The position numbers were made by a program. A DNA stretch of 43,830 bases from a virus (lineage: Duplodnaviria; Heunggongvirae; Uroviricota; Caudoviricetes). Below are positions 36,001 through 42,000 of the stretch, piece after piece. How positions within the stretch are numbered: the first letter of the stretch is position 1; each line of letters starts with the position of its first letter. The stretch lies in IMG/VR virus record IMGVR_UViG_2839610755_000005; one strand, given 5' to 3'.

Positions 36001-39000
36001 CTGGAACGGGTGCAACAAGGAAAGCCTGAGGGCGTATTTCCCCGCCACAGAGCGCATTCTGTTCGCGGAACATTATCAGGGGCCGTATCGTCCGAAAGAT
36101 GCCGGGTATGAGGCGAAGGGCAGGGCACTGAAACAGCATGTGATGGCTCCGCTGATTTCTTACTTTCGTGATGCGCGTGCTGCCCTGGGGATAACGGCAA
36201 AACAGATAGTGGATGCCACAGGAAAGAAAAACATGGTGTCGCACTGGTTCAGTGCCAGTCAGTGGCAGCTACCGAACGAAAGCGATTATCTGAAATTACA
36301 GGCGCTGTTTGCCCGGGTGGCAGAAGAGAAGCATCAGCGGGGTGAACTGGAGAAGCCCCACCACCAGCTGCTGGAGACGTATACTTCACTGAACCGGCAG
36401 TATGCGGAACTACAGAGTGAATATAAGCATCTGCGGCGGTATTTTGGCGTGACGGCGCAGGTGCCGTACACGGATGTGTGGACGCATAAACCGGTGCAGT
36501 ACTATCCCGGGAAACATCCGTGCGAAAAACCGGCAGAAATGCTGCAGCAGATAATCAGTGCGAGCAGTCGTCCGGGTGACCTGGTTGCAGATTTCTTCAT
36601 GGGGTCGGGTTCGACAGTCAAAGCCGCGATGGCGCTGGGGCGTCGTGCAACTGGCGTTGAGCTGGAGACTGAACGTTTTGAGCAGACGGTCAGGGAAGTA
36701 CAGGATTTAGTCAGTCAGAACGGATGATATTGCAGAATTAACCGGGTATCAGGTACGCCCCGAAAATTTTAAATGTCTCACAATTCAGACGGTTGACAGT
36801 TGTCTGGTTTGCGGGGAGTTTGTTAAAAGAAACTGGCATGGTGAATCCCCCTGAGCGGAGGGGCATATCAGCGCAGGTGTTTCTACTCTATCCTTTCTGT
36901 GCGGGTTCAGGTGCTGATACTGAATTCACCGGGAGGCACCCGGCACCATGCAAGAAAAAGAATGTGCATGCAAACATGCCCCTCTCCGGAGGGGCATTTT
37001 TTTATGGGTAAAAAATGCCCGAATGGGTTCGGGCAATAGCATGAGATACTGATATTGTTGTGTTGTTATCGTGTGGATTTTAACCAGGGTTTATCAGGCT
37101 GCGCAACTGCGTGGCCTTTTTTCATTTCTTGGGCTGTAGTCCCCGTGTGTCATTCAGGCTTCCGGACTACAGCCCACTCCATATCTGATTTAATACACTA
37201 TCCCGGCCGGGAGGAATAATGACATTTAAACATTATGATGTTGTCAGGGCGGCGTCGCCGTCAGACCTTGCGGAAAAGCTGACACACAAACTGAAAGAGG
37301 GCTGGCAGCCGTTTGGTAGTCCGGTGGCCATAACCCCTTATACCCTGATGCAGGCGATTACAGCAGAAGGTGATGTGGTGGTCAGTGGTGCAACTGAGCC
37401 GGATTGGTACTACGTCATCGTACTGGCCGGGCAGTCCAATGCCATGGCTTACGGTGAAGGGCTTCCGCTGCCGGATTCATACGATGCTCCGGATCCGCGC
37501 ATTAAACAGCTGGCGCGCCGCAGTACAGTGACGCCGGGTGGGGCTGCCTGCAGATATAACGATATTATTCCGGCCGACCATTGCCTGCATGATGTGCAGG
37601 ATATGAGTACGCTGAATCATCCGAAGGCAGACCTGAGCAAAGGGCAGTACGGCTGTGTCGGCCAGGGGTTACATATTGCCAAAAAACTGCTCCCGTATAT
37701 CCCGAATAACGCGGGGATCCTGCTGGTACCATGCTGTCGTGGTGGTTCGGCATTCACCCAGGGCGCGGAGGGGACATTCAGTGCGGACACGGGGGCCAGC
37801 CAGGATTCGGCGCGCTGGGGTGTGGGTAAACCGTTATATCAGGACCTGATTGCGCGCACCAAAGCTGCATTACAGAAGAACCCGAAAAATGTGTTGCTGG
37901 CCGTCTGCTGGATGCAGGGTGAGTTTGACATGAGCGCCGCCACCCACGCACAGCAACCTGCGCTGTTTACAGCCATGCTGAAGCAGTTTCGTGCTGACCT
38001 CTCCGTGTTTAACGCGCAGTGCCATGGTGGCAGTGCTGCAGATGTGCCGTGGATTTGTGGTGACACGACGTATTACTGGAAAAATACATACGCTACCCAG
38101 TACGACACCGTGTACGGCGGGTATAAAAACAGGGAGAGTGAGGGCGTTTATTTTGTGCCCTTCATGACAGACGGTAACGGCGTCAATACCGCCACTAACG
38201 CGCCGGCAGAAGATCCGGATATTCCGGCATCAGGATATTACGGTGCGGCATCGAGAACGAATGGAAACCAGGTATCATCAAACCGCCCGACACATTTCAG
38301 TTCATGGGCGCGCAGGAGCATTATTCCGGATCGTCTGGCAACCGCTATTCTGAACGCAGCCGGGCGCACCTCAGCCTTCATCAGTGGTAAGGCACCGGAA
38401 ATCAAACCCTCGCCCGGCGGCAACACGCCATCGGGTCCGTCTGCAGATACGTCCGTTCGCACAATCTCCCTGCTGCCGGCAGCCGGAGAGGCTGCTGCGC
38501 AGGGCTGGAGCATTAAGGATGGCGGAATTCAGTTGTCAGATGGTGTATTTAAGATCACCAGGCAGAGCAATAAAACCTGGTCCCTGACGCATCCGGTGGA
38601 TGACGCAATTACCCTGCTGACACAGGGCGGCAGACTGACCTGTAAGTTCCGCCTGTCAGGCGCACTGACCAACAATCAGTTCGGGCTGGGGATTTATCTG
38701 TATACGGATGCTCCCGTTCCTGATGGTGTGGCGATGACGGGTACCGGTAATCCGTTCCTGATGTCGTACTTCACTCAGACCACTGACGGCAGAGTGAATC
38801 TGATGCATCACAGGAAAGCCGGAAACACGAAGCTGGGGGAGTTCGGCGATTACGGTAACGACTGGCAGACGCTGGAGCTGGTGTTCACCGCCGGCAGTGC
38901 CACGGTTACTCCGAAACTGAATGGAGTGGCTGGCCCGGCATTCCAGGTCATAAAAGACAGTCTGACACTGGGACTGAATGCGCTGACGCTGACGGATGTT

Positions 39001-42000
39001 ACAAAAAATGCAGCGTATGGCGTTGAGATAGAAAGTCTGGTGCTGGAGATAAATGCACCGGCAGCATAATAAAAAAAGAGCCAGCGACTGACCTGAAAAA
39101 GAAGACGCTGGCTAAAAGGCCTTATATGTTTGTAGATACTTATTTTTCACAGACAGCAATGATGCCTGTCAATATATTATCAATATGCGGATTGTTTCAG
39201 TTACAGATGCTTTATTAAGGAAAAAAACAGCCAGCACTGACTTTCGGTGGGGAGGTGCTGGCTCAAAAGGATAGTTGGATTTCACATGATACTTATGCCT
39301 GGCGGTATATTTTCTGACAGACAGTGACGGATGTTGTCAAGATATTGTGTCATTTATAACCTGAACCAGGGGGGCCGGAATGTTATCTGGCATTTTTAGC
39401 AGAGCCTGAATGCCATAATCACGGCTCCCGGAGTTGGCCGTCAGTGGGTGACACTGGCGGCTTTTTGTTTTCCTTTACTTTCATTTTCTGTCGGCGGTGA
39501 CGGAGACATACATCAGATGGAAAAAATCACAACAGGTGTGTCATACACCACGTCAGCGGTAGGGACGGGATACTGGTTACTGCAACTGCTGGACAAAGTC
39601 TCTCCGTCCCAGTGGGTGGCAATAGGTGTACTGGGGAGTCTGCTGTTTGGCCTGCTGACGTATCTGACAAATCTTTATTTCAAGATTAAAGAAGATAAGC
39701 GTAAGGCTGCGAGAGGTGAATAATGTCGCCGTCATTACGCAAGGCTGTTGCAGCTGCTATTGGTGGTGGGGCTGTTGCCATAGCGTCTGTGCTCATCACT
39801 GGTCCAGGTGGTAACGATGGTCTGGAAGGTGTCAGCCACATACCATACAAAGATATCGTTGGCGTATGGACTGTATGTCACGGACACACCGGAAAAGACA
39901 TCATGCCCGGTAAAACGTATACCGAAGCAGAATGCAAAGCCCTCCTGAATAAAGACCTTGCCACGGTCGCCAGACAAATAAACCCGTACATCAACGTCGA
40001 TATACCGGAAACAACGCGCGGCGCTCTTTACTCGTTCGTTTACAACGTGGGCGCTGGCAATTTCAGAACATCGACGCTTCTTCGCAAAATAAACCAGGGC
40101 GATATCAAAGGCGCATGTGATCAGCTACGGCGCTGGACATACGCTGGCGGTAAGCAATGGAAAGGGCTGATGACTCGCCGCGAGATTGAGCGTGAAGTCT
40201 GTTTGTGGGGGCAACAATGAGCAGGGTAACCGTTATTATCTCCGCTCTGGTTATCTGCATTATCGCCTGCCTGTCATGGGCTGTTAATCATTACCGCGAT
40301 AACGCCATTACCTACAAAGCGCAACGCGATAAAAAAGCCAGTGAGCTGAAGCTGGCGAACGTGACAATTACTGATATGCAGGTACGCCAGCGTGATGTCG
40401 CTGCACTTGATGCCAGATACTCGAGGGAATTAGCCGATGCGAGAGCTGAAAATGAAACTCTGCGTGCTGATGTTGCCGCTGGTCGTAAGCGCCTGCGCAT
40501 CAACGCCAACTGTCCAGGCTCCTTGCGTAAAGCCCCCATCACCTCCGGCGTGGATAATGCAACCGGTCCCCGACTGGCAGAAGCCGCTGAACGGGATTAT
40601 TTCATCCTCAGAGAACGGCTGATGGCAATGCAGAAGCAACTGGAAGGAGCACAGGAATATATCCGTACCCAGTGTATACCGTGATGTTTTGTTATGAAGG
40701 TGTTACTGGTAACGTTAAGGTAATTTAACAAAGAGTCAGTTCCGGACTTTATAGTGTGCTCAGTTCATGGACAAAAACGATTTCTGTGATAAATATTTTG
40801 AATATTATTTACAGGTAAATGGAGTGGGGCGCATGGATAGAAATATTACAATAGAGTATGAAGTATATGCCCGTATTGTATGGGCAGAGAAGGCAAAAAC
40901 ACGGTAATTCCGTGTGTTGCCATGATACCTGATTGGCAGAATAGTTGTTTGGTTTTGAGTATATAGTCAGCGTTTTTTGTTCAGTAATTGCCCCCTCAAA
41001 AAATAATAAAATAAGGTGATTATTTTTGTTTATTATTTAGTTTTTTTTGTGTGTTATTTTATTGTTTTTGCGTGGTTTGTTTTTTATTGTTATTTCATTA
41101 AGGGAAGGTAAATTCAGGATGGCAGTCTGTAGATAATCGGAGGTCACTTATGCTACATGATCACGTGGCAGAATGTCTGGAGAAAAAAGGACTGTACCGG
41201 AGAGCAGCTGAACGATGGGCAAAAGTGATGGTACAGCTAAGTGATGACCAGAAAAGAAAAGTGGCGGCACAGAAACGAGCAGAGTGTTTGCGTAAGGCGC
41301 GCCGGACTCCGGTTTCACCGGTGAACCTGACCGAAATAAAACAAGCGGTCAACAGACTACATTCTGAGTTGGGAATGGGATTTGAAGAGCGGCGGGTATT
41401 CCGACGATATAAAGGGACAGGAGAACAGAATACGTCCGGAAACGCGCGGTCAAAAAAATGCTAAAAAATATCTGAGAGAGTTATTGCCTGTTACCATAAG
41501 AAAAAGCGACTTTAGTGGTCGCTTTTTGTGTCATATATAAGTCGTTTAAGTAAACCTGTCTGAACAGGTGCTCTGGTCGTGTTTGTCTTTGTTGGGTACA
41601 AATTGAGAATATTTTTCATTAATTAATCTTCTTCTGCAGGCTTCAATAACCCACGCTGAAAAATTACCTGAACCTTTCTGGTCAAGAGCGATGTTAATTT
41701 GTTCAATCATCTGGTTTGGAAATCGGATGTTGCGGGTTGTTGTTCTGCGGGTCCGGTTTTTCGGTGACATTTTCTTTCCTCTGGTGACAAGCTATATGGC
41801 GAGGATTTTACATGGCCGTGCTTCGTACGTTACCGGGCAGAATCAAAACTCTGAATACCCGGCGGGTGAATGTCCTGAAGGGGGAACAGCGTCGGGTCAG
41901 TGGCAGTGCCCGGGTTTCCCTCAAGCGTCGTATCTGGCTGAGGGATGCCGGACAGTGCTGTCTCTGTGGGCGTGTGGTTGACCTTTGTGACAGTGAACTC

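Follow-up and report, generated by a model that had tools for sequence, protein, structure and literature searches.

A NanS-p-family sialate O-acetylesterase in the late region of a non-Stx Escherichia coli O157:H7 prophage and the association of its N-terminal domain variants with head type

The closest described relatives of the gene considered here include NanS-p (L0105 / z1466) of the Shiga toxin (Stx) phage 933W, an Stx2a phage, its orthologue in phage phi24B (vb_24B_21 / gp84) and the chromosomal sialate O-acetylesterase NanS (YjhS) of Escherichia coli. All NanS-p alleles of the strains EDL933 and O104:H4 are active on 9-O-acetylated N-acetylneuraminic acid (Neu5,9Ac2) and on mucin glycans and support growth on Neu5,9Ac2, and after norfloxacin treatment nanS-p is among the most induced late genes (PMC8065619). 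Mitomycin C similarly induces nanS-p homologues by 1-2.4 logs (PMC10462455). For NanS, mutagenesis has, according to reviews, defined a serine and a histidine as catalytic, the Asp of block V is absent and the (H)QGE block is described as characteristic of the SASA family (PMC10017367, PMC9487903). A preprint from 2026 has identified phi24B gp84 as a virion protein by cryo-electron microscopy and proteomics, where six copies of its DUF1737 domain (residues 2-57, anchored by the 'tooth' Tyr42) assemble as a hexamer on each central hexon of a podovirus capsid with T=9, and where cleavage at linkers containing SSP, the proposed sites of self-processing, removes the esterase and lectin domains (10.64898/2026.04.10.717836). 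Here we describe a homologue contained in the IMG/VR virus record IMGVR_UViG_2839610755_000005, a stretch of 43,830 nucleotides (nt) that is referred to as the window. We find that positions 37219..39069 constitute an intact, bona fide paralogue of nanS-p, located among the late genes of an E. coli O157:H7 prophage that is not an Stx prophage. Biochemical and structural characterisations of nanS-p paralogues from enterohaemorrhagic E. coli prophages already exist, the exact sequence of this one is already found in RefSeq, and the gene call itself adds nothing new; the more interesting lead is that variants of the N-terminal domain track the type of capsid independently of the enzyme body.

Identity and catalytic residues of the window protein

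An earlier note on this DNA had pointed to a protein of 616 amino acids (aa) with a GQSN motif at this location. The open reading frame (ORF) was found as described there, on the plus strand and with GQSN at residues 71-74, and comprises the following elements:

37219..39069, plus strand: nanS-p coding sequence, 616 aa plus stop, ATG start (ORF list; PHROG 143; RefSeq match)
37210..37214, plus strand: Shine-Dalgarno sequence GGAGG, 4 nt 5' of the ATG (read from the sequence)
37219..37374, plus strand: DUF1737 domain in its short-loop variant N1, residues 1-52, including Tyr41 (Pfam PF08410, alignments)
37393..38358, plus strand: SGNH/SASA esterase domain, residues 59-380 (PDB 3PT5 NanS; Pfam SASA PF03629)
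37435..37437, plus strand: codon of Ser73, catalytic nucleophile of GQSN block I (aligned to the GQSN Ser of 3PT5)
38293..38295, plus strand: codon of His359, catalytic His of the RPTHFSS block (aligned to the His of RSSHFSS in 3PT5)
38359..38478, plus strand: Pro/Ser/Gly-rich interdomain linker, residues 381-420 (alignment; falls between two PDB-matched regions)
38479..39066, plus strand: lectin-like jelly-roll C-terminal domain, residues 421-616, DUF6645 (PDB 6YP6; Pfam PF20350)

Since PHROG 143 matches the product from end to end (1165 bits) and hundreds of phage and E. coli records match the ORF with E=0, it is no chance frame. Its three domains were all detected by Pfam above the curated cut-offs, namely DUF1737 (residues 3-50, E=1e-15), SASA (66-262) and DUF6645 (467-577, E=5e-18), whereas a search of the esterase against NCBIfam gave no match. 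Among proteins of known structure, residues 59-379 match NanS/YjhS from E. coli O157:H7 (3PT5, E=7e-122) and residues 421-613 the crystal structure of a NanS-p C-terminal domain (6YP6, E=2e-29). The proposal of a NanS-like SGNH esterase, which had been made conditional on similarity to NanS/DUF303 proteins, is decisively supported by these matches, as it is by the alignment with 933W NanS-p suggested in the same place, which extends over the full length of both proteins with 52-53% identity and E=0. Within the catalytic domain, Ser73, Gly175, Q233-G234-E235 and His359 are all present and are invariant in an alignment of six diverse NanS-p alleles, and the block V Asp is absent as it is in NanS. 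Homology, domain architecture, catalytic residues and gene context are in this way established for this very copy.

On the level of DNA, the gene is 100% identical to genes that many E. coli O157:H7 chromosomes carry under the annotation 'SASA family carbohydrate esterase' (WP_024748518.1), and 8-11 matching places per O157:H7 genome confirm the paralogy of nanS-p in enterohaemorrhagic E. coli prophages that the earlier note had mentioned. Its counterpart in Stx1a-converting phages, yjhS ('9-O-acetyl-N-acetylneuraminic acid deacetylase'), comes immediately after stx1AB and shares about 99% identity with it, and a gene of the classic lambdoid phage 434 shares 96%. A record from ATCC 43895, the strain EDL933, contains a fragment with 99.4% identity. 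The window copy represents, in a non-Stx prophage, the allele located after stx1 in the Stx1a phages, which matters for annotation, and such copies add to the redundancy with which O157:H7 can use O-acetylated sialic acids of mucin.

This redundancy, together with the pseudogenes annotated elsewhere in an identical prophage, would also fit a gene that is silent and without any contribution, a mere remnant within a prophage undergoing decay. We regard this as very improbable in view of an intact ORF with a strong ribosome-binding site and conservation of all catalytic blocks, of the 100% conservation in many independent O157:H7 genomes and of the activity of all tested EDL933 alleles (PMC8065619).

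Proposed late expression, release and function

The prophage in which the gene resides is lambdoid. Its integrase (20718..21848) lies directly next to a truncated ompW, and it also contains a cI/cro region and a terminase. The local order of genes is RusA, Q, a 65-aa ORF, a DNA methyltransferase, nanS-p, holin, endolysin, Rz/Rz1, a PerC-like regulator, an HNH endonuclease and terminase, which by synteny places nanS-p in the segment between Q and lysis genes, in agreement with the location in the late operon assigned by the earlier note and with the published induction-dependent expression of homologues (PMC10462455, PMC8065619). The elements surrounding the gene are:

34273..35094, plus strand: late antiterminator Q, 273 aa (Pfam PF03589, E=8e-50; RefSeq 'antitermination protein')
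35177..35192: terminator-like hairpin with T-run about 85 nt after Q, candidate tR' (terminator scan)
35669..36727, plus strand: DNA methyltransferase between Q and nanS-p (Pfam PF01555, E=6e-44; RefSeq)
36807..37007, plus strand: STnc100-family small RNA (sRNA) (Rfam RF02076, 150 bits), with terminator hairpin 36976..36997
37010..37071, minus strand: AgvB anti-GcvB sRNA, convergent with STnc100 (Rfam RF02702, 96.5 bits)
37096..37117, plus strand: terminator-like hairpin with T-run about 100 nt 5' of the nanS-p start (consensus scan only)
39070..39516, plus strand: conserved non-coding spacer of 447 nt between nanS-p and holin, with terminator-like hairpin 39436..39462
39517..39723, plus strand: class II (P21-type) holin / pinholin, 68 aa (Pfam PF04971, E=1e-32; RefSeq)
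39723..40220, plus strand: endolysin of the lysozyme RrrD type, 165 aa (Pfam PF00959, E=8e-46)
40205..40684, plus strand: Rz spanin (Pfam PF03245, E=2e-46)
40437..40622: Rz1-like ORF embedded in Rz (ORF list)

Taken as a whole, the locus is very probably explained by a prophage-encoded sialate 9-O-acetylesterase of the NanS-p family that is transcribed late, released by lysis and used for foraging on sialic acid. In this scheme, the SGNH/SASA core would remove the 9-O-acetyl group from Neu5,9Ac2 with Ser73 acting as nucleophile and His359 as base, and the C-terminal lectin-like jelly-roll domain would probably keep the enzyme on sialoglycans. For this copy, esterase activity, a growth benefit and induction-dependent expression would be expected by analogy to the close homologues described in the literature. 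Transcription most likely proceeds by Q-modified RNA polymerase within the late transcript, as suggested by the shared strand of nanS-p, Q and the lysis genes, by the flanking terminator-like hairpins and by the lack of a recognizable promoter of its own, since a consensus scan of positions 37000..37219 did not detect any sigma-70-like promoter directly upstream of the gene. This interpretation agrees with the reported induction of homologues by norfloxacin and mitomycin C, and both Q dependence and release by lysis may apply to the window copy. NanS-p contains no hydrophobic stretch (19-aa Kyte-Doolittle maximum 0.97) and hence no signal peptide, which makes lysis the simplest route to its substrate. 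The protein would build up inside the cytoplasm and gain access to mucin only once the holin-endolysin-spanin cassette lyses the induced cell, and the Neu5Ac (N-acetylneuraminic acid) set free could then feed surviving sibling lysogens.

Several observations weigh against this account. The promoter scan was a crude consensus search and as such provides weak evidence, so that nanS-p might still be expressed from its own promoter. Block IV reads RPTH, whereas most alleles contain RSSH/RASH, although the RPTH variant had been noted earlier for phage 86 (PMC10462455). The host prophage is perhaps defective, as the identical prophage of strain F8092B is annotated with a DUF968 pseudogene and a frameshifted portal, and release by lysis may therefore depend on other prophages or on spontaneous induction. 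Finally, by analogy, the phi24B result implies that part of the role of the protein may be structural instead of metabolic.

A different substrate has also been considered. Many phage tailspikes are deacetylases, which counts in favour of an esterase whose targets are not host sialic acids but bacterial surface glycans such as O-acetylated O-antigen or O-acetylated capsule, where it would aid adsorption to new hosts or prevent progeny from re-adsorbing to debris. Such a role was raised as an open possibility in a review, which at the same time states that it is without experimental evidence (PMC8065619), and a virion-docked esterase would be well positioned to exert it, although the domain of phi24B is located on the capsid and not on the tail (10.64898/2026.04.10.717836). 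Since the core is closest to NanS, whose activity is maximal on 9-O-acetyl Neu5Ac (PMC9487903), and since Neu5,9Ac2 and glycans of mucin are deacetylated by NanS-p enzymes in recombinant form (PMC8065619), we consider action on surface glycans quite improbable.

Concerning the immediate surroundings, the holin is indeed the next gene downstream, but nanS-p does not adjoin it as the earlier note had stated, because the 447 nt spacer intervenes. The spacer contains two loose copies of a unit of 135-150 nt, each beginning with AAAAAAA(G/C)AGCCAGC, and its hairpin stands just before the holin. It is about 95.6% identical in the Stx1a phage Stx1_14040 and in phage 434, whose curated record annotates terminators at places equivalent to the spacer hairpins, and a scan of the whole window detected no Rfam family above the gathering threshold within it. 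On the other side, both sRNAs are located inside the 491-nt gap 5' of nanS-p. The same trio of STnc100, AgvB or AsxR on the opposite strand, and nanS-p is found in an Stx1a phage and in 933W, which suggests that the sRNA pair and nanS-p form a conserved cassette travelling together. The possibility that STnc100 represents the short transcript between pR' and tR' was discarded as unlikely, since in Stx phages it falls 3' of the Q-dependent stx genes. The methylase encoded at 35669..36727 also precedes the transfer RNA (tRNA)-stx2 block in the phages Stx2_EH2246 and Stx2a_1447. The prophage itself contains no stx, and a tRNA scan of the window found none, the ileZ-argN-argO block located upstream of stx and nanS-p in 933W-like phages being absent here.

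Variants of the DUF1737 domain and their relation to head type

In light of the reported virion association of phi24B gp84, the window protein's N-terminal domain was compared with its counterparts. It contains a homologous DUF1737, whose residues 1-33 are nearly identical to 933W and which has a tyrosine (Tyr41), but in a loop that is 3 residues shorter and differs in sequence (ITPYTLMQ versus STAGYGAEF in 933W). The first linker comprises only about 8 residues, and SISSP/SSP processing motifs are absent from the entire window NanS-p. The major capsid protein (MCP) of the window prophage is a fusion of 645 aa that joins an S78 protease and a capsid domain of the HK97 type, and it is not similar to the MCP of 933W/phi24B. 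With unrelated MCPs, a shorter loop and no SSP motif, a direct transfer of the capsid binding described for phi24B to the window protein would be unjustified.

A comparison among ten phages from GenBank revealed a mosaic structure of NanS-p, as illustrated by the following cases:

BP-4795: stx1 upstream, DUF1737 of the window type, body of the 933W type, head type A
Stx2_EH2246, Stx2a_1447 and an Stx2c phage: stx2 upstream, DUF1737 of the window type, body of the 933W type, head type A
Phage 86: stx2 upstream, DUF1737 of the 933W type, body of the window type, head of the 933W type

To extend this comparison, the best 160 of more than 1,100 candidate IMG/VR loci were taken and their heads typed by terminase, portal and MCP markers, which yielded 76 loci where the gene is intact and the head was assigned to a type, corresponding to 27 unique haplotypes. 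These loci are related prophages and the association statistics given below ignore their kinship. Three N-terminal variants were distinguished, N1 with the short loop of the window protein, N2 with the long loop of 933W/phi24B, and N3 (PFSSYTDDGAALIQAI). Head modules were assigned to type A, the protease and HK97-type capsid fusion of the window prophage, type B, that of 933W, the lambda type with gpA, gpB and gpE, and type C with a gpA-type terminase of 670 aa, a lambda-family portal of 500 aa and a ClpP and Phage_capsid_4 fusion of 706 aa. The variants are distributed over the 76 loci as follows:

N1: head A 22, head B 0, lambda head 35, head C 2
N2: head A 1, head B 9, lambda head 0, head C 0
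N3: head A 0, head B 0, lambda head 0, head C 7

The N3 variant (…GGPFSSYTDDGAALIQAIVA…, NanS-p residues ~30-52) is found only with C heads (loci L102, L104, L105, L110, L120, L121 and L126). Exceptions to the association are three in all, namely L163, where N2 is combined with A-type head genes, and L026 and L139, where N1 is combined with C heads. The terminase ORF of L026 seems to be split, as would be expected if this prophage is decaying.

The strength of the association is reflected in the adjusted mutual information (AMI) with head type for the successive segments of the region:

DUF1737 N-terminus: 0.57 (76 loci), 0.47 (27 unique haplotypes)
Esterase: 0.16 (76 loci), -0.07 (27 unique haplotypes)
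Lectin domain: 0.16 (76 loci), -0.12 (27 unique haplotypes)
Holin: 0.05 (76 loci), 0.03 (27 unique haplotypes)
Endolysin: 0.01 (76 loci), -0.04 (27 unique haplotypes)

For the DUF1737 N-terminus, Cramer's V with head type amounts to 0.91 in the 76 loci and to 0.79 in unique haplotypes. Simple linkage to the head genes was rejected as explanation, because the intervening esterase, lectin, holin and endolysin segments associate with head type much less. Linkage to the upstream stx flank was equally rejected, since stx2 occurs with both N1 and N2: Stx2_EH2246, Stx2a_1447 and the Stx2c phage contain stx2 and a 933W-type body, yet a short-loop N-terminus and A heads.

These results bear on a reading in which NanS-p is mainly a virion component, whose DUF1737 docks on capsid hexons so that the particle carries esterase and lectin domains at least transiently. 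The enzyme would then help the phage to bind or cross O-acetylated mucus and any benefit to the lysogen would be secondary, a reading that overlaps with the foraging function described above and does not exclude it. It would be favoured by the hexamers observed on the central hexons of phi24B (10.64898/2026.04.10.717836), which involve the same domain as found in the window protein, and by the fact that the DUF1737 variant predicts head type where the segments between it and the head genes do so far less. Moreover, a 933W-type body (>90% identical) is found in combination with N1 and an A head, with N2 and a B head, and with N3 and a C head, and the capsid proteins of the four head types fall into different Pfam families. 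Against it stand the dissimilar MCP, the shortened anchor loop and the missing SISSP/SSP motifs of the window prophage, the one N2 locus with an A head and the two N1 loci with C heads, and the phylogenetic non-independence of the sampled prophages. N1 is also not capsid-specific, as sub-variants of the short loop do not separate A from lambda heads and identical N1 sequences are found with type A, with lambda gpE-type and occasionally with type C heads, which indicates that N1 is generic to long-tailed lambdoid phages instead of being matched to one capsid family. Considering both sides, we regard a primarily virion-borne role as a serious possibility that nevertheless falls short of being probable.

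Judged from sequence comparison, docking of the window allele to the head, which would complement the esterase and foraging role and not replace it, is similarly conceivable but somewhat doubtful, and an attachment via DUF1737 may be considered in this sense. In a more general and likewise somewhat doubtful proposal, DUF1737 would serve as a swappable capsid-docking adaptor, with N1, N2 and N3 kept matched to the head module while the esterase-lectin body recombines freely, and NanS-p of many long-tailed lambdoid phages including 434 would be displayed on the head. The designation of the gene as cargo in the earlier note applies to a late-segment esterase gene but may be incomplete, given the DUF1737-docked virion protein of phi24B and the variants that track head type, and by this analogy the window NanS-p may be partly structural and not a pure moron. 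If this were true, NanS-p would be a virion-borne mucus-modifying enzyme and not just a moron of benefit to the lysogen; its confirmation would reclassify the protein from 'metabolic cargo' to a modular head-displayed enzyme and extend the single observation in phi24B to lambdoid phages generally.

Remainder of the window and comparison with known systems

Outside of the region described so far, positions 1..20700 of the window contain the tail end of a different lambdoid prophage and an effector locus. This left part includes gpJ (with a frameshift in the reference strain), Lom, genes for tail fibres, nleA (8210..9535, minus strand), ISEc8 (12199..14532), nleG and espM1, followed by the truncated ompW that adjoins the integrase of the nanS-p prophage. 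A PerC-family transcriptional activator (41150..41464, Pfam PF06069, E=4e-44) is located between the lysis cassette and the HNH/terminase genes. Rfam further identified the following elements:

2202..2318, minus strand: ALIL pseudoknot, in the frameshifted-gpJ region of the prophage on the left
25224..25275, minus strand: DicF sRNA, near dicB
31706..31880, plus strand: sok antitoxin RNA, with hokD

Among known systems, the window protein shares its three-domain architecture and catalytic blocks with NanS-p of 933W and its phi24B orthologue, and in 933W nanS-p is also located 3' of the pair of STnc100 and anti-sRNA and 5' of the holin. The similarity to 933W NanS-p is unevenly distributed, with about 71% identity in the esterase core and about 32% in the lectin domain, and the window protein differs by its short-loop N1 domain, which is not followed by a SISSP linker, and by a first linker that is 14 residues shorter. 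Unlike 933W/phi24B, the window prophage does not carry stx, and its head module is unrelated, with an HK97-type protease-MCP fusion in place of Phage_capsid_3.

Stx1a phages (such as Stx1_14040 and YYZ-2008) and phage 434 contain essentially the window allele, with 99% and 96% identity, respectively, and the same 447-nt spacer and pinholin downstream, whereas the upstream neighbour is stx1AB in Stx1a phages, membrane-protein genes in 434 and the DNA methyltransferase here. Phage 434, a laboratory phage of long standing, has true lambda heads (gpD and gpE). Its nanS-p (L005, OL657226.1) is found at 43456..45306 in the '434B nonhomology' region, between a Q82-like antiterminator and the pinholin.

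The chromosomal NanS (YjhS, 3PT5) is homologous to the catalytic domain over its whole length, with conservation of Ser and His and the block V Asp missing in both, but it is a single-domain protein of the nanCMS operon that contains neither DUF1737 nor the lectin-like domain and is not phage-borne. Finally, a functional analogy, with no relationship in sequence, connects NanS-p to Hoc, the mucus-binding capsid decoration of phage T4. NanS-p differs from Hoc in carrying an enzyme and in being hexameric in phi24B, and docking of the window allele is putative; if DUF1737 does dock, both proteins would, as considered in the preprint on phi24B (10.64898/2026.04.10.717836), have in common a head-displayed glycan-binding module at the centres of hexons.

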